Part shown: positions 20 through 63,509 of the stretch, piece by piece
How positions within the stretch are numbered: the first letter of the stretch is position 1
How the letters are laid out: every line of letters begins with the position of its first letter
Assembly (NCBI GenBank): GCA_965209095.1
Contig: OZ242381.1
Span: 4,417,784-4,481,783, forward strand
Direction: 5' to 3'
Length of the DNA stretch: 64,000 nt
Origin: Candidatus Poribacteria bacterium
GTDB taxonomy: Bacteria > Poribacteria > WGA-4E > WGA-3G
Program-made: the position numbers and the translations under genes
Notes under the pieces: model-generated
What the model was told of the DNA's origin: nothing
The model's input: the letters and a program-made list of their open reading frames with translations, nothing else
Databases searched by the model: none

Positions 20-207
20 AGGATATGTAAAGTTTTTGGTACTGCACGTAGGGGCGGGGTCTCCCCGCCCGATTACCACTTCTTACCACATTTCCCATCC
101 CAACCACTGCTGATAGATAGGATTTGTTCCAACGAGGGCGAGGAGACCTCGCCCCTACGATGTGCCTGAACGTGAGATAACCTTTGCCAAAGACTTTACA
201 CACCCTC
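20..207. repeat. MITE-like palindromic element, copy A (reverse-complement orientation relative to copy at 33579-33777)
   Basis: Terminal inverted repeats TGTAAAGTTTTTGG...CCAAAGACTTTACACACCC. Internal GC hairpins GTAGGGGCGGGGTCTCCCCGCCC and GGGCGAGGAGACCTCGCCC. The reverse complement aligns over about 190 bp with 33579-33777 at roughly 85% identity by eye. Confidence 0.6.
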
Positions 208-1436: not shown

Positions 1437-2291
1437 TCAATTACGAGGAATGGATATGTCTGCCTGATCTATTACAGGTAACACATCCTGTTCGTTTGGA
1501 TCTCCATCCGGATATTGCGCGGTAATCTCCACCCGTGCTTCAACCCTATATCTTTCTCCTGGTACTCCACCGTTGGGAAGTGTATAGTCATCAGAGTAAT
1601 AATCGTTAGCAGAATCATCATGGTTATCACTGTTTGCCTGAATAAATCCTACCAAAATAGGTTTGTTAGAGCACTCAAGTACGTCTGCTTCATGTCCGAG
1701 TGGTGTTAAGCGGATAACCTTATATCCTATACTCATCCCATACAGGAGTATCCGTCCCATATTGTCCTTGATGGAACCGGACACCTCGGCTTCTGCCCTG
1801 GTCCCGTTCCACGCGATATTTACCGACCCAGACATTGTCGCCATGGTCCAGTTACCATACTTTGTTCTCGTCTTGGGGAAGGTATAGACAGTAAAATCAT
1901 AGTTAGCAGTATTAAACGACATCCAACCATCGATTTCTTTCTGTGCCAATACACTTATCACATACTTTCTACCTGTCGGAGCTCCTGGTAGATAGGAAAT
2001 AGAAAAATAATGATCTTTCCTCACACCATCACCTTCGGTACTGTCAATTCTACGAGTTTCTTCTGTCGCACTATCATAAACGTACCAGATAAGTTTGTCA
2101 TAAGGCTTGTCCGTTCGGACATAAAAGGTAAAATATGGATCACCATCATCGTATCCTACGTGGGTATCATATTCTACGTGGGTAACATTGGATGACCTCA
2201 GTTCTTCAATACTAATTGCATGACCACTATTGATCATTCCTAACAGAAACACAGTAGAAAGTCCTACTATTGTGAGTGCAATTGCTCTCAT
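1437..2291 (-). CDS. Secreted hypothetical protein (WYV...GDG domain family)
   Basis: Signal peptide MRAIALTIVGLSTVFLLGMINSGHA. Internal M at aa 14 of the track ORF chosen as start. Shares the motif IWYVYDS...IDSTEGDG with 45357..46298 and with the giant protein 51169..54795. Confidence 0.45.
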   Translation of the reverse strand: MRAIALTIVGLSTVFLLGMINSGHAISIEELRSSNVTHVEYDTHVGYDDGDPYFTFYVRTDKPYDKLIWYVYDSATEETRRIDSTEGDGVRKDHYFSISYLPGAPTGRKYVISVLAQKEIDGWMSFNTANYDFTVYTFPKTRTKYGNWTMATMSGSVNIAWNGTRAEAEVSGSIKDNMGRILLYGMSIGYKVIRLTPLGHEADVLECSNKPILVGFIQANSDNHDDSANDYYSDDYTLPNGGVPGERYRVEARVEITAQYPDGDPNEQDVLPVIDQADISIPRN

Positions 2292-2407
2292 TTTTATCTC
2301 CTTATATTGCGTAATAGTTTGTAATAACAATGTTCATGACAATAACAGGAGATATAAAAACATTGTAACTTGATCTCGTGTTATTGTCAAACAGAAATTG
2401 CATCAAC

Positions 2408-2590
2408 GGGTGTGTAAAGTTTTTGTACCAATTCAAACTTTTTCATATCAGGTAACGCCTCTCTCTACACCTTGTAGGGGCGGGTCTCTGTGCCCGCCCG
2501 TTACATCCAATTTCTCAGACATGGCGGGGCACAGAGACCCCGCACTACAATGGTTGGTGAGAAGTTAGTGACAAAAACTTTACATACCCT
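2408..2590. repeat. MITE-like palindromic element, copy B
   Basis: TIRs GGGTGTGTAAAGTTTTTGTACC ... GTGACAAAAACTTTACATACCC. Internal hairpins GTAGGGGCGGGTCTCTGTGCCCGCCC and GGCGGGGCACAGAGACCCCGCACTACAATGG. The track ORF 2490..2702 lies inside it and is spurious. Confidence 0.6.
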
Positions 2591-12840: not shown

Positions 12841-12881
12841 TATGATCCTCTAATTCTCAGACTGTTATATGGTAAAATAAC

Positions 12882-13020
12882 CCAAGTTGCCACCTATTAT
12901 TTGTAGGAGGGGTTTCTAACCCCGATTGATAACAAAAGATATAGAAATAACGAATTCTGGTGTCAATTATGGTAAATCGGGGTTAGAAACCCCTCCTACA
13001 AGCCTTAGGTGGCAACTTAG
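12882..13020. repeat. MITE-family hairpin module inserted between ccmE and ccmF
   Basis: Outer inverted repeat CCCAAGTTGCCACC / GGTGGCAACTTAGG. Inner hairpins GTAGGAGGGGTTTCTAACCCCGAT / ATCGGGGTTAGAAACCCCTCCTAC. The same module recurs at 57087-57115. Confidence 0.55.
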
Positions 13021-13023
13021 GAT

Positions 13024-13473
13024 TTAATATGAACTATCAGTAGTTTTGGCACTTTCCGCTTCTTCATATTTGGAAGCACACTTCGTGGTCACCTTATTAG
13101 CGATAATCACGTTCTGTTTTGCATCGTATCTGCCTTCAACAAAAACGTTGCCGCCATCAATGAAGTTATCCGGTTTGAGTTTGTTATAAATCACTTTGAC
13201 AGTCTCAGTTTCTGCATGCTTTGTCTCAGTTTCTTCAAGTTCACGTACGTCAAATGTCAACTTAAATTCGTCCGCATCCCATGTCGTACTCTCCTCAGAG
13301 ATGGCACCAACAAGCTGGACATTCTGATTATCCATTGTCTCAGCATTGGCAAGTAGTTTCACAGGAGTCAACTCCCGCATACTCTCTTTTTTTGTCATTG
13401 CTAACACTAAAATGACGAAACCGCTAAGCAAAATAAGACTTGCAGCGAATACTTTTAGTCTTCTCTGTTGCAT
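13024..13473 (-). CDS. ccmE: Cytochrome c maturation heme chaperone CcmE, CxxxY variant
   Basis: N-terminal TM anchor. OB-fold region LKPDNFIDGGNVFVEGRYD resembles CcmE LPDLFREGQGVVVQG. The heme-binding motif reads KCASKY instead of KHDENY. Start at 13473, with RBS GGAGGA 8 nt upstream. Confidence 0.75.
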   Translation of the reverse strand: MQQRRLKVFAASLILLSGFVILVLAMTKKESMRELTPVKLLANAETMDNQNVQLVGAISEESTTWDADEFKLTFDVRELEETETKHAETETVKVIYNKLKPDNFIDGGNVFVEGRYDAKQNVIIANKVTTKCASKYEEAESAKTTDSSY

Positions 13474-20964: not shown

Positions 20965-21576
20965 ATGGACAATTTAATCTTTGTTTTGCCTATTCTATTC
21001 GTGATTGTACTGGTGCTACTCACACCAACGATCCGAAAAGCTATGGAAGCTGATCGGTTGGCAAAAGCAAAATATCAACTCACCAACCAACTAAAAGATT
21101 TAACAAATACAAATATTGAAATCACCAATCAACTAAAGAAGTTAACAAGAGCAAATAGTAAACTAACAGACGAATTAAATCTATCACAAACGAAACTGTT
21201 AAAAGCTGAAATAGCGGTATTAAAGGCTAAACAAACGAAAAAACCCGTTTTCTCTATACCACCACCAGAAATATGGTACGAGGACGATTATTGGTTAGCA
21301 CTCACTAATTGGTATCGTCAACTACAAAACTGGACATGTGAGTGTTGTGGAATAGATTTGAAGAAGCGGCCCTACTTTCTGGACACACACCATATATTTG
21401 GTAGACGACACAACGATCCAAGGTATCTTAAGGCACTTTGTATCGGCTGCCATGCGGAACAAACTGCGCCGTATAACCACATGTTTATGAAGAAAACTAT
21501 GTTTATGGAAAAAACTTCAAGATATAAACGTTTTAGGAATATCTATCCTGATTGGAAATGTAAGAAATGTAAGTAG
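20965..21576 (+). CDS. Membrane-anchored coiled-coil HNH endonuclease-like protein
   Basis: N-terminal TM helix, a roughly 60-aa coiled coil, and a C-terminal HNH motif CECCGIDL...HHIFGRRHNDPRYLKALCIGCH. Confidence 0.55.
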   Translation: MDNLIFVLPILFVIVLVLLTPTIRKAMEADRLAKAKYQLTNQLKDLTNTNIEITNQLKKLTRANSKLTDELNLSQTKLLKAEIAVLKAKQTKKPVFSIPPPEIWYEDDYWLALTNWYRQLQNWTCECCGIDLKKRPYFLDTHHIFGRRHNDPRYLKALCIGCHAEQTAPYNHMFMKKTMFMEKTSRYKRFRNIYPDWKCKKCK

Positions 21577-24542: not shown

Positions 24543-25690
24543 ATGCCAAGACACACTCTTCACCTCACTGATGAACAAAAAACTGCACTCTGCAAAATGC
24601 GAGATAATGGACAACCGGCTTATTTGCGTGAACGTGCTGCTGCGATATTGAAGATGGGCTCAGGGATGTCTCTCCATAAAGTCGCCTTGAGTGGTCTGTT
24701 GAGAAAACGAAAACCCGATACTGTCTATGACTGGTTGAGCCGGTTTCGCAAGCAAGGCATTCAAGGGCTCTTTCAAAAATCTGGCAGAGGCAGAAAACCT
24801 GCGTTTGCTCCGAAGTCCGAAGAAGACGCAGAGGCAGAGTTACAAAACATTGTGGGCATGTCGCCAGATACCATCTCGGGACATGCGACGCGCTGGACAT
24901 TGCGACAGATCAAGGTAGCAGTGCCGGGGTTGGCTCACATTTCTGTGTCGGGTGTGCATCACATTCTCTCGCGGCTCGGCATTAGTTACAAACGTGGTAG
25001 AACCTACATCCATAGTCCTGATGTTGCGTATAAGGAAAAAATGTTATACGTTTCTCAGGCGTTGGCACGAGCGAAGCAAAACCCGACACCTATGTTGCTC
25101 TATACGAAGATGAGTTTGCTTTTTACCGGCGTCCCACATTAGCTAAAGATTGGACAGAACGTGGCACGAAAAAACCGCTTGCTCATCAGGGACTTGGTTC
25201 ATATCTGACATGCTTTGGGATAGGTTCACTGAACGCACACACAGGTGATGTCGTTTACCATCAAGTAGAGCGTGCCACCGTGTTAGCGACACATGCGTTT
25301 TACACAGCAGTTTGTGAAAGGTATCCCAATGCGAAACACATTTATATGATACAAGACAATCGTCCTATTCACCTCCCTGTCCGGCTCTTAGAAGCACTTT
25401 TGCCACAGAAATCGTCGTTTCATAAACCACTCCCACCGAGTTGGGAGAAAGGTGCTACGAAAATAGGAAAACTACCTCAGTTGCCAATAGAGATAGGACA
25501 ACTACCGACCTATGCGCCGTGGACGAACCCGATTGAAAAACTGTGGCGATGGGTGCGTCAATCCGCTGGACATTTACATCGTCTCACTGATGAATGAGAA
25601 ATCCTTCAACAACGGATGATTGCGTTCATGGAACAGTTCAAAGGGGGTTCACAAAAACTCGAACGATATGTTGGATTATCACCCGATTAA
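24543..25690 (+). mobile_element. IS630-family transposase pseudogene (at least 2 frameshifts)
   Basis: HTH N-terminus. DDE region YEDEFAFYRRPT...IQDNRPIH...WTNPIEKLWRW is split across three frames, with breaks near 25095 and 25595. The C-terminal ...FMEQFKGGSQKLERYVGL lies in a third frame. Confidence 0.7.
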
Positions 25691-25726: not shown

Positions 25727-25797
25727 ACATAGTACTCCGCTGGAGTGCCAGAACTTGAAATCCGATTTTCTATAAACATAGTACTCCGCTGGAGTGC
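25727..25797. repeat. Two direct copies of CATAGTACTCCGCTGGAGTGC separated by about 27 nt
   Basis: Seen directly at 25727-25749 and 25775-25797, just 3' of the IS630 remnant. Confidence 0.5.
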
Positions 25798-29763: not shown

Positions 29764-30031
29764 CTGTATTACCTCAAAATATGAAAAGATGTTAAAACTT
29801 TTATCAAAGTGTATCAAAAATTGAAATGCAATTCAATTCATTTCTTTGGTATAATTAAAATAAAGAAAATTACATGTGTCTATTTTAATACAATCACTAA
29901 CAGGCATTTTTCCCAGTACCATTATATTTGTAACAACCTTATATTTGGCATCGTTTATGCAAGAGAAAAGTAACTTATGCAAAATCTTTACAAAAATTTC
30001 AATATATAAGGACATATAGTAAGGAGAAAAA

Positions 30032-31300
30032 ATGCAAAAATTCATCATCAACGGCGGTACCAAACTTGAAGGAACAGTTCAAATAAGTGGTTCAAAAAAT
30101 GCTGTTCTACCTATTGCAGTTGCCGCAGCAATTCTTGGAGATGGTATCAGTGTACTCCATAATGTACCAAATCTCACAGATGTCCAAACACTCAGTGCTG
30201 TACTTGAAGGACTGGGAGCATCCATTACAAGAAAAAACGGTTCTCTGTATATTGAACCAATAAATCGCATGGAATACGAAGCACCTTACGATTTAGTGCG
30301 GAAGATGCGAGCATCTATCTATGTGTTGGGACCTCTGATTGCAAAGTTGGGAAAAGCAAAAGTTTCTTTTCCAGGAGGTTGTGCTATCGGTTCACGACCT
30401 GTTGATTTACACATCCGTGGCTTAGAGCATTTAGGCGCAGATGTAGATGTAAAAAAGGGCTATATCTATGCACAGTCTGACAAATTGGTCGGTTGTGATA
30501 TGAATCTCACTGGGCAGTATGGTCCAAGTGTTGGTGCTACAGCAAATGTCTTGATGGCAGCAACCTTAGCAGAGGGAACAACGATTATCCGGGGTGCAGC
30601 CCGAGAACCTCATATAACTGATCTTGCAAAATTTTTAAATGCTATGGGGGGAAAAATAAAAGGTATTGGCACATCTAAGTTGACAATTCATGGTGTGAAA
30701 CAATTACACGGAACAGAATATACAGTGATTTCTGATGACATTGAAGCAGGAACCTTTATGGTTGCAGCAGCTATAACAAATGGCGATGTCTTTGTTGAAG
30801 GAATTGCACAAGAACAGATACCTGCAATATCAGAAAAACTGAATGATATCGGTGTGCATTTAGATTGGAGTGAAACTGGTGTACGCGTCACAACGCCAAA
30901 AAAACTCAAAGCCGTAGATGTGAAAACAGTCCCATTTCCAGGATTTCCCACTGATATGCAGGCACAGATTATGGGACTTCTCTGTCTTGCCTCAGGCAAG
31001 AGCACAATTACTGAGAATGTCCACACTGATCGCTTTATACACGCAGCTGAACTCAACAGAATGGGTGCGGATATAAAACTTGACGGTCGTAAAGCAATAA
31101 TTAATGGTGTTTCATATCTTAGTGGAGCACCGGTAATGGCATCTGATCTACGAGCAGGAGCAGTCCTTGTTGTTGCAGGATTGGCAGCCTCAGGAGAAAC
31201 TGTTGTTTCTCGTATCTACCACATAGACAGAGGATATGAAGCGATAGAGAACAAACTGAAGAACCTTGGTGCAGAAATTGTTAGAAAAAATGAAGAGTGA
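30032..31300 (+). CDS. murA: UDP-N-acetylglucosamine 1-carboxyvinyltransferase MurA
   Basis: Full-length EPSP-synthase-fold MurA (GSKNAVLPI..., catalytic Cys region GGCAIGSRPVDLH). Confidence 0.85.
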   Translation: MQKFIINGGTKLEGTVQISGSKNAVLPIAVAAAILGDGISVLHNVPNLTDVQTLSAVLEGLGASITRKNGSLYIEPINRMEYEAPYDLVRKMRASIYVLGPLIAKLGKAKVSFPGGCAIGSRPVDLHIRGLEHLGADVDVKKGYIYAQSDKLVGCDMNLTGQYGPSVGATANVLMAATLAEGTTIIRGAAREPHITDLAKFLNAMGGKIKGIGTSKLTIHGVKQLHGTEYTVISDDIEAGTFMVAAAITNGDVFVEGIAQEQIPAISEKLNDIGVHLDWSETGVRVTTPKKLKAVDVKTVPFPGFPTDMQAQIMGLLCLASGKSTITENVHTDRFIHAAELNRMGADIKLDGRKAIINGVSYLSGAPVMASDLRAGAVLVVAGLAASGETVVSRIYHIDRGYEAIENKLKNLGAEIVRKNEE

Positions 31301-31332
31301 ACTAAACAACATCAACGGGACATTATTCTGAT

Positions 31333-32631
31333 ATGTTACGAATTGTAGATATAGATACATCTGAAAGTGCTTCCTTTCTCTCAAAACTAAATGATCGTGG
31401 AAAGTTGGAAGATGAAAATATCCTGAGAACTGTACGAAGAACTATCAGTGAAGTACAAGATGAAGGGGATAAAGCAGTTGCACGCTATACACGCAAATAT
31501 GATGCACCACGATTATCAACAAAGGGACTCAAGGTGCAGCCACGGGAATTTAAGCAGGCATATTCCGATGTTAAATCGGATTATATAGAGGCTATTCTCC
31601 ATGCCAAAGACAATATTGAAAGTTTCCATCAGAAGCAGCTGCAAACATCATGGGTATCCACTGAGCAAGAAGGGGTTTTGTTAGGGCATCTGATTCATCC
31701 AATAAAACGTGTTGGGGTATGTGTTCCATCTGTGAGTCAACTCTTAGTCTCGTCATTGCTAATGAGTGTTATACCGGCTACTGTAGCAGGTGTAGAAGAA
31801 ATCGTGGTATGTATGGGACCGATGCGTAATCGTCAGATAAATCCGCACATGTTGGTTGCCGCAGCAGAATGCGGTATTAATGAGATCTATAAATGTGGCG
31901 GTGCTCAGGCAGTCGCTGCAATGGCTTATGGCACAGAGACGATTCAATCTGTAGATAAAATTGTCGGTCCTGGGAATTTGTTTGTTCAGATGGCTAAAAA
32001 GGAGGTGTTTGGTCAAGTTGGAATTGACAAATTAGCTGGGCCGAGTGAAATCCTTGTGATAGCCGATAGCACCGCTGATCCTGATTTCGTCGCAGCAGAC
32101 CTTATTTCACAAGCCGAACACGGTGCTGAATGTTCTGCAATACTGATTACAACATCACGCGGATTTGCAGAGCAAGTTAAGGGAGCCATTGAACTACAAG
32201 CTCAGACTCTTCCGAGACAATACGAACTGGTTAAAGCATTTGAAAATTACGGCGTTGCAATAATTGTTAATGATTTAGATGAAGCAATTGATATTGCAAA
32301 CAAGATTGCACCTGAACACGTTGAATTACATATTGAAAGTCCTTTTGAACGGATTGGTGAAATTCGAAATGCAGGTGCTATCTTCATCGGTCCCTACTCA
32401 CCTGAAGCAGTTGGTGATTATATCGCAGGTCCAAATCACATACTCCCAACTGGCACTGCAGCACGTTATGCATCATTATTAAGTGTAGATGACTTCCTGA
32501 AAAAGACCAGTCTTATTTCTTATACAAAAAAAGCATTAAACAAAGTTATTCCAGATGTTGTAAAACTTGCTGAAGTTGAAGGTTTAGACGGTCATGCCGC
32601 TGCTATCAAAATAAGATTTGAAGATGATTAG
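31333..32631 (+). CDS. hisD: Histidinol dehydrogenase HisD
   Basis: 432 aa with HisD-like pattern throughout (GGAQAVAAMAYGTE...GPGN). Confidence 0.8.
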   Translation: MLRIVDIDTSESASFLSKLNDRGKLEDENILRTVRRTISEVQDEGDKAVARYTRKYDAPRLSTKGLKVQPREFKQAYSDVKSDYIEAILHAKDNIESFHQKQLQTSWVSTEQEGVLLGHLIHPIKRVGVCVPSVSQLLVSSLLMSVIPATVAGVEEIVVCMGPMRNRQINPHMLVAAAECGINEIYKCGGAQAVAAMAYGTETIQSVDKIVGPGNLFVQMAKKEVFGQVGIDKLAGPSEILVIADSTADPDFVAADLISQAEHGAECSAILITTSRGFAEQVKGAIELQAQTLPRQYELVKAFENYGVAIIVNDLDEAIDIANKIAPEHVELHIESPFERIGEIRNAGAIFIGPYSPEAVGDYIAGPNHILPTGTAARYASLLSVDDFLKKTSLISYTKKALNKVIPDVVKLAEVEGLDGHAAAIKIRFEDD

Positions 32632-32703
32632 TATATTTCTTTAACAGCAATTTCAATGATTTTCTTTTAAAGTTCATATTTCTTCTTAACAAAACGCAAA
32701 AGT

Positions 32704-33375
32704 ATGTATAATAACCGTTCATTCATCAAAGACACCAAACCCATTTCAACATTCTCCATTGTTGGATTTGATCCTGAAAATGGAGATTTAGGCATTGCTG
32801 TTCAATCAAAGTTCTTTGCTGTCGGTGCAGTTGTGCCTTGGGCGGAAGCGGGGGTAGGTGCAATTGCGACACAATCTTGGGCAAATACAACTTATGGTCC
32901 CAGAGGATTACAGTTGCTCAAGATCGGTCTTTCTGCAGAACAGACTTTAGAACATCTGATTAAAGATGATAATGATAGGGAATCACGTCAAGTTGGCATC
33001 GTAGATGCATCAGGTAATGCTACACACTTCACGGGGAATAAATGCAACAATTGGGCAGGTGCATTTTCTGGTCAACATTACACAGCACAAGGAAATATTC
33101 TTACAGGTGCAGATGTTGTGGAAGCAATGGGAAAAGCCTTTGAAGAGGCAGACGGTGAATTAGCGGACAAACTTTTGGCTGCCCTCATAGCAGGTCAAGA
33201 GAAAGGTGGGGACAAACGTGGACAACAATCCGCTGCACTCCTTGTTGTCCGAAAAAATGGCGGTTACGGTGGTTTCAATGACAGATATATTGACATACGA
33301 GTTGATGATGCAAATAAACCGATACAAGAACTACAACGTCTATTGAAAATACATAGACAGTTTTTCTCACGATAA
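32704..33375 (+). CDS. DUF1028 (Ntn-hydrolase-fold) family protein
   Basis: TFSIVGFDPENGDLGIAVQSKFFAVGAVVPWAEAGVGAIATQS matches the DUF1028 N-terminus. Confidence 0.55.
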   Translation: MYNNRSFIKDTKPISTFSIVGFDPENGDLGIAVQSKFFAVGAVVPWAEAGVGAIATQSWANTTYGPRGLQLLKIGLSAEQTLEHLIKDDNDRESRQVGIVDASGNATHFTGNKCNNWAGAFSGQHYTAQGNILTGADVVEAMGKAFEEADGELADKLLAALIAGQEKGGDKRGQQSAALLVVRKNGGYGGFNDRYIDIRVDDANKPIQELQRLLKIHRQFFSR

Positions 33376-33522: not shown

Positions 33523-33578
33523 GGTGTCACACCTCAAAAGCAATTAATAAATCATAGGAGGAAAATCCGAAGCGTGCA

Positions 33579-33777
33579 GGGTGTGTAAAGTTTTTGGCAA
33601 AGGTTATCTCACGTTCAGACACATCGTAGGGGCGAGGTCTCCTCGCCCTCGTTGGAACACATCCTATCCATCAGCAGTAGTTGGGGTGGTAATCAGGCGG
33701 AGAGACCCCGCCCCTACGTGCAGTGCCAAAAACTTTTCACATCCAAGCGTGCATGGGTGTGAAAAGTTTTTGACATG
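33579..33777. repeat. MITE-like palindromic element, copy D (near full-length, with an extra terminal TIR copy)
   Basis: TIR GGGTGTGTAAAGTTTTTGGCA ... TGCCAAAAACTTTTCACATCC, plus a second copy GGGTGTGAAAAGTTTTTGACATG. Internal hairpins GTAGGGGCGAGGTCTCCTCGCCC and GGAGAGACCCCGCCCCTAC. Confidence 0.65.
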
Positions 33778-33951
33778 AACATCATGCTGCTTTTGTGTTT
33801 GGATACCAATATCTTTCCCAAGCCTTGTTTTTTGACAAACATCTCCACTTTAGCACAGCATTGATGCCCGGTTTCTCCCACCTCATAGCTGCTTGTTTGC
33901 ACCTTTCTCCGACAACCTGTTTACACGCACTTTCAATCACGCCACTTCCAA

Positions 33952-34553
33952 TCATATACCCTTTTTCTCTAAATGCTCTATATTACATGCGCTTCGCATG
34001 TTTTTCAAAGTACGCTGATTTTCCTCAAGTTCTTGAGGTGCCACTTGTTCACAAACATTCAAATCTTCTGACCATTTACGCACATTCTGGTGGAGTATCG
34101 TGTGACTTACTTCTATCCCTTGATGAGACAACTCCTCTGATGCTTCCCTATAGTCAAGGCGAAAAGACAAACGACACATCGCTTCAGCGACACGATGCGT
34201 GTATTGATCCAATAACTTCTGCTTCACATCCCACGGGGCATGCCTATGTCCTTGCTCACAACAATACCCCCAACGACTTATACTTATTTTGCCACAAAGG
34301 GTTGTCAAACACCGCTCGCGTTTACGCAATGGACGACAAGGTGCTTTATACTCCGGACATTCAACAGGTTCACTTCTAAAAACTTCTGTTCAAGAGAACG
34401 AAAGGTTTCGGAAACACGAACTTCAACATCATGTAAAGAGAGACGCTCGTCAGAATCAATCTCTCCATAAAGATCGTTTATTTCTTTGACGAACTTTCTA
34501 AAAGGATCTTTGCAATCGTTGCTATCACAAACACTTAATGATATACTTGACAT
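33952..34553 (-). pseudogene. Transposase remnant (zinc-ribbon + HTH region), frameshifted
   Basis: Two overlapping minus-strand ORFs. C..C...CEQGH followed by LSFRLDYREASEELSHQGIEVSHTILHQNVRKW resembles a transposase N-terminal HTH. No catalytic domain. Adjacent to a MITE copy. Confidence 0.3.
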
Positions 34554-34621
34554 AGGTATCTTCTCCTAGATAGTTATATATTTATTAGGATAGGATACCA
34601 TTTGTATACATTTCCATTCAA

Positions 34622-34652
34622 GGCAATTTCATGCCAAAAACTTTACACACCC
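34622..34652. repeat. Solo MITE terminal repeat (CATGCCAAAAACTTTACACACCC)
   Basis: Seen directly. Confidence 0.5.
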
Positions 34653-34778
34653 TTGACATACATCAAATTTGCAATTTAACACATTATAGAGTATAATTAA
34701 AAAGGATTTATACGGTCTTATATTAATATGTGAAGTCTTATATCAGTATAAAGAATAATTTACGGTCTTAATGTTTGA

Positions 34779-35801
<1,023 letters not shown>

Positions 35802-42374: not shown

Positions 42375-42548
42375 TCTACAGGACTTACGCAGTTTTTCTT
42401 AAAGTCCCACTGATAAGGGGGATTTAGTAAATCAACGCTACAAATGCCATTAAGGCATTTGGCGGGGTTATATCACTAAAATATCATTGAAATAACGACT
42501 TTTAACCCCCCTAATCCCCCTTATCAAGGGGGAATGCGTAAGTCCTGA
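42375..42548. repeat. Nested palindromic intergenic element
   Basis: Outer inverted repeat AGGACTTACGCA/TGCGTAAGTCCT. Middle TGATAAGGGGGATT/AATCCCCCTTATCA. Inner GGGGTTA/TAACCCC. Central palindrome CAAATGCCATTAAGGCATTTG. Confidence 0.5.
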
Positions 42549-43943: not shown

Positions 43944-44211
43944 CTGGTATTTTTCCTCCTAAATGTACTGAGAATACAACATAATTATACCAGATTCTGT
44001 TGAAATTTGCAAATATCTTGATTTTGTAGGGGTATGTAAGTTTCTGCACAAACTTCCTATTCTCCCTTGTCCTGCTAAATCAACGCCAAATAAGCGTTTG
44101 GCATGCTCCATGATTTATACCGTTGATTTGGATTCCCGACTATCACCGAGTTAAGCCGCGATTCGGAGATCGCTCGGACAGAAGATATGTCTACTTATTT
44201 TCATATTTCAC

Positions 44212-44253
44212 CAAAAATAAAAAGGCAGATACTCATAAAGGATACCTGCATCT
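44212..44253 (-). terminator. Rho-independent terminator (conserved motif, copy 2 of 3)
   Basis: On the minus strand it reads GCAGGTATCC-TTTATGA-GTATCTGCC-TTTTTATTTTT, 3' of 44282..45250. Confidence 0.6.
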
Positions 44254-46786: not shown

Positions 46787-46872
46787 TATTTTCATCACAT
46801 AACGTTATATAGGAAAGTTATTGTTATATGAGGGGTGTTATACCATTTCGCATAAATGAGTGTGTCCAGTTA

Positions 46873-47033
46873 TTGCACAAACTTCCCATTCTCCATTGTA
46901 GTGCAATGTCTCTGTGTCCTGCCATCTCTCAATTCATCTGCTATAGCGGGGCGCAGAGCCCTCGACAAATGCCAAACACGCATTTGGCACTACAATGAGA
47001 AAAGTCCTATCTGTGCAATAACTGGACACACCC
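46873..47033. repeat. Degenerate MITE-family copy F
   Basis: CATTGTAGTGCAATGTCTCTGTGTCCTGCC ... GGCACTACAATG ... ends GGACACACCC. The 5' flank TTGCACAAACTTCCCATTCTCC also occurs at 44055-44080. Confidence 0.45.
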
Positions 47034-50868: not shown

Positions 50869-51110
50869 ATCCTTTTCGTGCCATTCTCTCATTTATCTAA
50901 CAATGGTATATTAGGTGAGAGATTTAGGCAATCCTCCTTCAATAATGTATCAACACCTTACCATAACTCATTAATTTCGTCAATGTATTATTTCATCGCG
51001 ATGAGAGATTCCAAAAATGCTTGGAAGAAGGGATAAACGTACTCTCTTACGTGGAAAGATGTATCAATAGAGGCATGAAAGAAAGTTTAGGTGAGAAATA
51101 ACAGGTAGGA

Positions 51111-51148
51111 AATAAAAAAGGCAGATACCCAAAAAGGATACCTGCCTA
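51111..51148 (-). terminator. Rho-independent terminator (conserved motif, copy 3 of 3)
   Basis: On the minus strand it reads GGCAGGTATCC-TTTTT-GGGTATCTGCC-TTTTTTTATTT (11-bp stem with 2 G.U pairs), 3' of 51169..54795. Confidence 0.65.
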
Positions 51149-56530: not shown

Positions 56531-57086
56531 CATGGACCGATCAACGCAAAAGACGCATTTTACCTTAATCAGTAAATTCTTGTGCAGACAATATAGAGGA
56601 CAACACGTTGCAAATTAACACATTAGGGAACACTAAGATCCCTATAATGTTTATCAAGACTTATTGTCAATATAACATCGATTCTCTGATATTTTTGTAA
56701 TGTTTTTTGGGTTCCCGATTTTTTTCAACTAACTATTAGACCGTTAAATTGTGCGTAACGTGTCTAATACATGAGATTAACACATTTCTCTATTTTTATC
56801 AAGTATTAATCAAACTGACGTTAAAAGTAATATAGTTCGGACAGTTTTTTTGAGTCGTGATGCTTTCATTTTCACTTTTAAATCTCGTGCTAAAACACAT
56901 TTCGCCCCTCTGGGGCTTGGCTTACTATTACCCATAAGTTTTTGAGGGTGGTATATTCAGTTTTTCACCGGTTCTGCTGGGGAAACGGACATGAAAATAG
57001 ACCCAAATTTTGAAATCAGGATGCCTTTATGTGCCTTTTGGATGATTTCGGTCGTTTTTTCGTCTTTATGAGACGTTTTATGTCGG

Positions 57087-57190
57087 AAATCGGGGTTAGA
57101 AACCCCTCCTACAAGAAGTTGAAACCATTCATTCGACTTGTGGGTAATAGTAAGCCCCTACGTGCAGTGCCAAAAACTTTACACACCCTC
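57087..57190. repeat. Chimeric MITE-family copy G
   Basis: Half of the 12882-13020 module (ATCGGGGTTAGAAACCCCTCCTACAAG) joined to a copy-A/D-type end (CCCCTACGTGCAGTGCCAAAAACTTTACACACCCTCC). Confidence 0.55.
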
Positions 57191-63392: not shown

Positions 63393-63509
63393 CATTGTAG
63401 TGCGGGGTCTCCGTGTCCCGCTATTGCCGGTAGATTGAAGGATGGCGGGGCACGGAGACCCCGCACTACAATGGATGGTCAGTAGTTGGTGCCAAAACAT
63501 CACACATCC
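63393..63509. repeat. Partial MITE-family copy E
   Basis: CATTGTAGTGCGGGGTCTCCGTGTCCCGC ... GGCGGGGCACGGAGACCCCGCACTACAATGG ... GGTGCCAAAACATCACACATCC. Internal hairpins as in copy B. Confidence 0.55.

Follow-up and report, generated by a model that had tools for sequence, protein, structure and literature searches.

What are the short, GC-rich repeats that recur between the genes of Candidatus Poribacteria, and what moves them? We addressed this question in a 64,000-nucleotide stretch of contig OZ242381.1 (positions 4,417,784 to 4,481,783; hereafter the window), in which a sequence-only reading had flagged the interval 33579-33777 as one of at least eight copies or fragments of a single modular family resembling MITEs (transposable elements of the miniature inverted-repeat type). 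The flagged repeats are very probably non-autonomous MITEs of an insertion sequence (IS) of the ISKra4 group, which has a Mutator-like DDE transposase (p-MULT 4); they target promoters and carry nested hairpins that resemble repetitive extragenic palindromic (REP) elements. Terminal repeats identical between MITEs and IS, target duplications, proximity to promoters and the independent occurrence of the hairpins were all observed directly.

A 21-bp motif, GGGTGTGTAAAGTTTTTGGCA, has nine matches in the window at three or fewer mismatches, where dinucleotide-shuffled sequence yields 0.01 on average. Inverted copies of this motif bound three complete elements with 9-bp target-site duplications, at 21-205, 2408-2589 and 33579-33744. 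Their terminal repeats differ from the consensus at 0-3 positions, their duplications match at 9/9 positions in two cases and at 8/9 in one, and the elements themselves are 166-185 bp long, with no internal open reading frame (ORF) of 80 amino acids or more. The focal copy (33579..33744, plus strand, 166 bp) ends in GGGTGTGTAAAGTTTTTGGCA and GGATGTGAAAAGTTTTTGGCA (the reverse complement), encloses an inverted pair of GTAG-tagged hairpins, and lies between 9/9 identical copies of AAGCGTGCA at 33570..33578 and 33745-33753. It belongs to subfamily A, represented in the window by two further sequences: a 35-nt fragment at 57154-57188 and a 185-bp element on the minus strand (21..205), which is inverted relative to the focal copy and flanked by CCCTTCCGA (12-20) and TCCTTCCGA (206-214). 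Identity between the focal copy and 21-205, taken as its reverse complement, is 84.3%, close to the roughly 85% given in the sequence-only reading. Subfamily B comprises the 182-bp element on the plus strand at 2408..2589, which has the same kind of terminal repeats and TGCATCAAC on both sides (2399-2407 and 2590-2598), and a partial element at 63393-63509. At the 2408 site, an empty-site junction would join CAGAAATTGCATCAAC to TAACAATTAG.

The flagged interval 33579-33777 proved to be two things. Its first part is the focal MITE, which stops at 33744; its last 23 nt belong to an IS remnant that starts 10 bp further on (33755..34652, minus strand) and has the same 21-bp ends as the MITEs. The remnant is an internally deleted ISKra4-family IS of 898 bp, compared with about 1459 bp for an intact copy, and its alignment to an intact copy at another locus (L033:4555-6013) contains deletions of 514, 34 and 12 bp. 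Although the sequence-only reading had found no transposase encoded, residues 1-61, 72-192 and 364-439 of a defective ISKra4-family transposase are readable by tblastn on the minus strand of 33785-34553, with the segment 192-364 lost. The ORF at 33952-34329 (minus strand) matches the NF033572 ISKra4 model with E = 2e-12 and 46.9 bits, a low score that reflects truncation. What had been listed as a solo end at 34622-34652 is explained by the same remnant, whose other end is 34632-34652.

Intact relatives of this remnant were found by a motif scan covering one genome per species, which returned at least 114 loci with the terminal motif; the window and the 114 listed loci form a census set of 940 kb. 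The copy at L033:4555-6013 has perfect 21-bp terminal repeats, a 9-bp duplication (TTCTTCAAA) and a 439-amino-acid ORF that scores 247 bits on the NCBIfam model NF033572, 'ISKra4 family transposase' (cut-off 205), and 75 bits on the ISLre2 model, under that model's cut-off of 200. At least nine more copies of 1.43-1.46 kb with MITE-matching ends are present in the listed loci, as are at least 10 intact transposase genes with 52-100% identity to that of L033. The IS ends read GGGTGTG... and ...CACACCC, with duplications of 9 bp, and these 21-bp ends are all that the window MITEs and the IS have in common. Because of the shared ends, the duplications and the intact transposase genes in related genomes, we regard the short elements as bona fide MITEs of this IS.

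Across the census set, 63 pairs of neighbouring terminal repeats in plus/minus arrangement were found. About 37 of these pairs span 86-460 bp, others form a ladder from 600 to 1230 bp, and 10 fall at 1430-1459 bp. Duplications of 9 bp flank 15 pairs at 9/9 positions and two at 8/9, a level never approached by a shifted control (at most 5/9); several more pairs have a duplication that is present at an offset of one base. The MITE-like character proposed from the window thus extends to many genomes and to unrelated sites: the elements have inverted repeats, 9-bp duplications and no coding capacity, and the copies found elsewhere keep their conserved termini. The pattern that the sequence-only reading had named as refuting a mobile family is thus clearly contradicted. 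All but one of the 114 listed loci (113) come from Candidatus Poribacteria or from metagenome-assembled genomes of uncultured bacteria. The sole listed motif locus labelled Acidobacteriota, L100 (CAZBWJ010000011.1), could reflect chance similarity, misbinning or a transfer. An association with phages was rejected, with one match in 2.9 million viral contigs.

Where do these elements insert? Guerillot et al. (2014; PMC3942029) reported for p-MULT elements direct repeats of 8-9 bp and inverted repeats that measure 18-39 bp and have a terminal C, and they located the insertions of TnGBS, ISLre2 and some ISKra4-group elements upstream of sigmaA promoters. In their data, promoter detection peaks 16 bp from the inverted repeat for the TnGBS/ISLre2 clade (p-MULT 3), and 13 ISKra4-group ISs have promoters on both sides, which is attributed to the near-perfect complementarity of the two inverted repeats. 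We searched the outward flanks of 196 non-redundant element ends, counting as a full promoter a match of at least 9/12 with a spacer of 16-18. The hexamer TTGACA (at least 5/6) begins at offset 15-17 in 41 of the 196 ends, against 5.8 expected (Poisson P ~1e-21), and is followed by TG and then by an A/T-rich hexamer at extended -10 spacing. A full sigma70-type promoter is found at offset 15-17 for 54/196 ends, compared with 0-6 at six control offsets and 20/2000 at random positions. Among the MITE-size pairs with duplications of at least 8/9, the promoter is at exactly one end in 7/10; therefore, the promoter is part of the target and not of the element. Judged by consensus matches, the promoter-upstream target choice of this family matches the published ISKra4/TnGBS specificity; within the ISKra4 group, insertion 13-17 bp upstream of sigmaA promoters characterises some of the members.

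Two of the four window elements have a predicted promoter at the expected distance. The first (2362..2390, minus strand, TTGACA-17-TACAAT, 11/12) starts 17 nt outside the left tip of the MITE at 2408 and faces the ORF 2330..1437; the second (34669..34697, plus strand, TTGCAA-17-TATAAT) starts 16 nt beyond the right tip of the IS remnant (34652), upstream of the glyceraldehyde-3-phosphate dehydrogenase (GAPDH) gene at 34797-35801. Each copy listed by the sequence-only reading does lie between ORFs, and promoter targeting accounts for the intergenic position of all copies, with a terminator on the upstream side and a promoter downstream.

The GC-rich hairpins inside the elements are at the places where they had been described. 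They are GTAG-tagged, REP-like palindromes, usually arranged as inverted pairs, and they constitute separate dispersed repeat families nested in the MITEs. Four designs recur: GTAG-GGGCGRGG-TCTC-CYCGCCC, GTAG-GGGCGGG-TCTCTGTG-CCCGCCC, GTAG-TGCGGGG-TCTCYGTG-YCCCGC and GTAG-GA-GGGGTT-TCTA-AACCCC. Of the 4-mers that stand 5' of perfect GC-rich hairpins in the 940-kb sample, GTAG is the most frequent (33/386), and the four hairpin types have 8-22 copies each. We consider the hairpins independent of the MITEs because they also occur far from terminal repeats (more than 250 bp from any of them for 18 of 22 type-2 hairpins and for 3-6 copies of each type-1 variant) and in several MITE backbones. The GTAG tag characterises the REP-element superfamily of that name (Di Nocera, 2013; PMC3733652), and inverted pairs of such hairpins are the REPINs of Bertels and Rainey (2011; PMC3116915).

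Within the window, an inverted type-1a pair occupies 48..158 (48-70 on the plus strand, 136-158 on the minus strand), and equivalent pairs are found at 33626-33648 / 33695-33717, 2474-2499 / 2521-2548 and 63397-63424 / 63442-63469. Elsewhere, hairpins occur as singlets, doublets and tandem mosaics or arrays (L046, L053, L071). A single backbone can hold different centres: that of subfamily A encloses a GTAG...CTAC palindrome (L110, 103 bp), two full hairpins with a spacer (the window copies and L114, 166-185 bp) or another nested palindromic element (L051, 234 bp). Because MITE interiors match dozens of non-coding sites elsewhere and essentially no long ORFs, the 'modular' appearance reflects nested dispersed repeats rather than captured genes, and Pack-MULE-like capture of gene fragments was ruled out on the same grounds.

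Elements placed back to back recur: at 33744/33755 in the window (10 bp apart), L027:2304/2314 (9), L040:878/885 (6), L075:209/226 (16) and L098:7962 (0). Such placement suggests that one target is used repeatedly or that existing ends attract new insertions, and chimeric MITEs could arise by this route. For the window pair, re-use of one 9-bp target by the MITE and the IS was ruled out, as the right flank of the IS, TTGACATAC, is unlike AAGCGTGCA. A wider proposal, which we hold as tentative and improbable, is that REP-like GTAG hairpins spread mainly as passengers in promoter-homing DDE MITEs, possibly without a REP-associated tyrosine transposase (RAYT), and that piles of elements yield chimeric MITEs. 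Repeated homing 16 bp upstream of promoters would stack elements back to back, 6-16 bp apart, and use of the outer ends of a stack would then mobilise new chimeric 'modular' MITEs. If this were true, the system would be a parasite on a parasite, with a REP inside a MITE that depends on an IS, and a prokaryotic counterpart of cargo-carrying Mutator-like elements that places hairpins just upstream of promoters.

Other explanations of the repeats were weighed against the same evidence. Host-selected cis-elements (terminators, mRNA stabilisers or small-RNA genes conserved for that role) would account for strong GC-rich hairpins in intergenic DNA, and transcription of REPs, as well as mRNA stabilisation by them, is reported from other bacteria (PMC3733652). 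Against such a role, which the sequence-only reading had suggested, no T run follows any of the hairpins, and no terminator-like site lies inside 21-205, 2408-2589 or 33579-33744; the neighbouring genes carry terminator-like sites of their own, between gene and MITE (312-286, 2645-2631 and 33518-33481). In addition, a Rfam 15 scan of the whole window gave 0 matches at the gathering score, and the interiors vary greatly between copies, so that selection for a cis-acting function is unlikely. The most economical view is that the elements are selfish DNA that homes to a 'safe' position immediately upstream of promoters; that the MITEs might influence promoter insulation or operator sites upstream is speculative. 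Very unlikely, in turn, is the idea that they are random decay products of the IS (internal deletions and solo ends) that never formed a propagating MITE family. Decay is visible in the ladder of 600-1230-bp deletion derivatives, which includes the 898-bp window copy, and in some short elements that keep IS-internal sequence beside their ends (for example L011:4948-5262 and L038:384-657), but subfamilies A and B lack IS-internal sequence, and in each the same backbone recurs at various sites in various genomes, with a separate 9-bp duplication for every copy.

The hairpins themselves raise a further explanation, that whole units of 160-190 bp are REPINs moved as single-stranded DNA by a RAYT (IS200/IS605-type Y1 transposase), with the outer repeats as the outer stem. 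The interiors are inverted pairs of GTAG palindromes, and GTAG tags with inverted dimers define REP/REPIN elements (PMC3733652; PMC3116915). As single-stranded DNA, moreover, the whole unit folds into one long hairpin, at -37.6 kcal/mol for 33579-33744 (z = -5.8) and -43.5 kcal/mol for 2408-2589 (z = -7.4), although strong single-strand folding is expected for any inverted-repeat element. Y1 transposases of the IS200/IS605 family are not known to make a target duplication, whereas 9-bp duplications flank the outer repeats here, which contradicts such movement for the whole unit. The outer 21 bp are also identical to the ends of an IS with a DDE transposase, and the same outer repeats enclose many unrelated interiors. 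No RAYT-like ORF was found in the 940 kb sampled, by tblastn with an approximate E. coli RayT query or by a scan for HxH...YxxxNP, a weak test given that a single-copy gene is rarely sampled. We therefore consider RAYT-driven movement of whole units extremely unlikely; the proposed likeness to REP elements and bacterial interspersed mosaic elements (BIMEs) holds for the internal hairpins and fails for the element as a whole. Least credible of all, with next to no chance of being correct, is mobilisation by an IS630-type element, as the sequence-only reading had envisaged. An IS630-type remnant (an HTH_32 ORF and a DDE_3 ORF) does lie at 24543-25597, with 80% DNA identity to L043:1-662. IS630/Tc1-mariner elements make a TA duplication, however, while the duplications here are 9 bp of arbitrary sequence, and the terminal repeats match the ISKra4-type IS perfectly.

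Several observations weigh against our interpretation of the repeats as promoter-targeting MITEs of an ISKra4-group IS, or limit its reach. No intact transposase was found within the 64-kb window, and with the window IS copy dead, current mobility of the MITE family in this genome is unproven. The IS remnant at 33755-34652 has no target duplication (AGCGTGCAT versus TTGACATAC). The focal copy at 33579-33744 adjoins the IS end at 10 bp, neither of its flanks shows a promoter at the canonical distance, and the promoters used throughout are predictions from consensus matches, not mapped transcription starts. A metagenome scan with the flanking DUF1028 protein as query recovered no empty-site allele of the focal copy. 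Finally, restriction of the family to Poribacteria is suggested, among the matches listed, and not proven.

Comparison with relatives adds detail on the sites themselves. The best relatives in the DUF1028 metagenome scan have 78-82% protein identity; synteny with the nearest of them (L115:4669 onward, and L117) holds over 30020-33355 and breaks right after the DUF1028 gene, and the GAPDH gene is not downstream in these relatives. Lacking a duplication and standing at a synteny break, the IS remnant may mark the breakpoint of an IS-mediated rearrangement. The window is 85-87% identical to L067 over about 5 kb. At 20965-21576 it has a 203-amino-acid ORF with a CxxC...HH motif and no Pfam match, while L067:5020-5190, between the same orthologous genes, holds part of a subfamily-B MITE; the two genomes thus differ by presence and absence at this single intergenic site. 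In L043, a MITE stands at a position that other repeats occupy in the window. Neither of these syntenic loci gave a clean filled/empty pair, and their intergenic contents differ from that of the window.

On the interpretation as ISKra4-group MITEs, movement would proceed as follows. An intact IS copy would supply transposase in trans, the window copy being dead, and the enzyme would recognise the 21-bp terminal inverted repeats and move the element, possibly through a circular intermediate by analogy with IS256 and TnGBS. Integration would then occur 15-17 bp upstream of the -35 box of a sigma70/sigmaA promoter, in either orientation, with a 9-bp target duplication. The way in which the promoter is recognised, and how the hairpins entered the MITEs, we infer.

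How does this family compare with known systems? It is closest to the ISKra4 group (ISKra2/4/5/6, ISCasp2/3 and others; p-MULT 4; PMC3942029), with which it shares the transposase family (NF033572 over the cut-off), 21-bp inverted repeats that end in C and are near-perfect complements, 9-bp direct repeats, and a choice of sites some 16 bp upstream of sigmaA promoters, which may lie at either side. Unlike that group, the family described here resides in Poribacteria and includes many short non-coding derivatives with non-IS interiors; MITEs are nowhere mentioned in PMC3942029, and neither MITE derivatives of the ISKra4 group nor Poribacteria repeats are described in the literature searched. The TnGBS integrative and conjugative elements and ISLre2 (p-MULT 3) likewise target sites 15-17 bp upstream of the -35 box and generate 8-9-bp duplications, but they have a transposase of another clade and insert in one orientation, whereas here promoters occur at either end. 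Pack-MULEs of eukaryotes share the transposase superfamily, the 9-bp duplications and variable cargo between conserved ends, and they prefer the 5' ends of genes (PMC3942029); their cargo is gene fragments, in contrast to the dispersed non-coding repeats seen here.

The internal hairpins have parallels of their own. With the GTAG REP/REPIN/BIME elements and their RAYTs (PMC3733652; PMC3116915) they share the GTAG (or GTTG/GTGG) tag, GC-rich stems of 6-9 bp with short loops, inverted doublets, tandem mosaics and extragenic location; Poribacteria are absent from the phyla listed in the PMC3733652 survey. The hairpins described here differ in being very often embedded in DDE-type MITEs with target duplications. 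In Nostoc (a description attributed to Elhai et al. 2008) and in the Nezha MITEs of cyanobacteria, short hairpin repeats are reportedly nested in larger MITE-like repeats, with a modular look, but the phylum, the sequences and the parent transposase are different. A cyanobacterial origin of the window, to which GC content and hairpins had pointed, was rejected when the motif scan led to Poribacteria. The Poribacteria family is thus a combination of known kinds: non-autonomous elements of the ISKra4 group, with their published promoter-homing rule, and GTAG-type REP hairpins.

Recurrent elements were correctly recognised as real by the sequence-only reading, but the copies that it listed as one family mix, by their end sequences, at least three terminal-repeat families that have only internal hairpins in common. 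The element at 12861..13041 (strand not assigned) belongs to a different MITE family with a terminal repeat of approximately TAACCTAAGTTGCCACCTA and contains an inverted type-2 hairpin pair, GTAGGAGGGGTTTCTAACCCCGAT, at 12903-12926 (plus strand) and 12976-12999 (minus strand); other members of the family with these ends have different interiors. At 46858..47033, a degenerate element with the diverged terminal repeat GAGTGTGTCCAGTTATTGCACA and a decayed type-1c hairpin pair inside has no target duplication. A one-ended composite fragment absent from the earlier list occupies 44030..44190 on the plus strand (right boundary approximate); its end, GGGTATGTAAGTTTCTGCACA, bridges the main type of terminal repeat and the 46858 type, and other dispersed modules follow. 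Of the partial members of the main family, the 35-nt fragment at 57154..57188 (plus strand) is the truncated right end of a subfamily-A MITE, 94% identical to 33710-33744, and is adjoined by a single type-2 GTAG hairpin at 57089..57112 (minus strand). The partial subfamily-B element at 63393..63509 (plus strand) has an inverted GTAG-hairpin pair and a degenerate right end (reverse complement GGATGTGTGATGTTTTGGCAC), with no recognised left terminal repeat.

Further palindromic modules were observed beside the GTAG hairpins. Two direct copies of a CATAG-tagged hairpin, CATAGTACTCCGCTGGAGTGC, lie at 25728-25748 and 25777-25797; the module has 20 copies in the 940 kb and also occurs, as a nested unit, within ISKra4-type MITEs from other Poribacteria (L009, L025, L030, L064). 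At L046:1740-2159, a tandem array has units of about 130 bp, each with two adjacent GTAG/CTAC-tagged palindromes (GTAGGGGTTAGGTTACCTAACCCCTAC then GGGCGAGAAGACCTCGCCCCTAC), in a BIME-like mosaic. Small modules common to Poribacteria loci are found at 42420-42470, 44076-44140 and 56895-56920 (AAATCAACGCC...GGCATTTGGCG, CGCGATTCGGAGATCGC and TTTCGCCCCTCTGGGGCTT) and show a rich set of short palindromic repeats besides the GTAG hairpins. Separately, a terminator-like hairpin followed by a T/A run (AAAAGGCAGATAC...GTATCTGCC) recurs downstream of three different genes, at 286-312, 44214-44249 and 51110-51145; it could represent a further family of dispersed repeats or a preferred design of terminator.

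For annotation, these results mean that several of the 'solo ends' and 'modules' listed in the window should be merged into one IS remnant and that other listed copies should be split into families. Poribacteria are a dominant uncultured phylum of sponge symbionts, and the abundant, hitherto unexplained intergenic repeats of their genomes can be tied to a specific parent transposon and to a specific rule of target choice, with insertion some 16 bp upstream of sigma70-type promoters. The promoter homing of ISKra4, TnGBS and ISLre2 elements is thereby extended to miniature derivatives, and the insertions are usable as promoter markers in genomes that have no transcriptomic annotation. The family also provides naturally occurring data on the nesting of small palindromic repeats in MITEs and on the mosaic elements built in this way.

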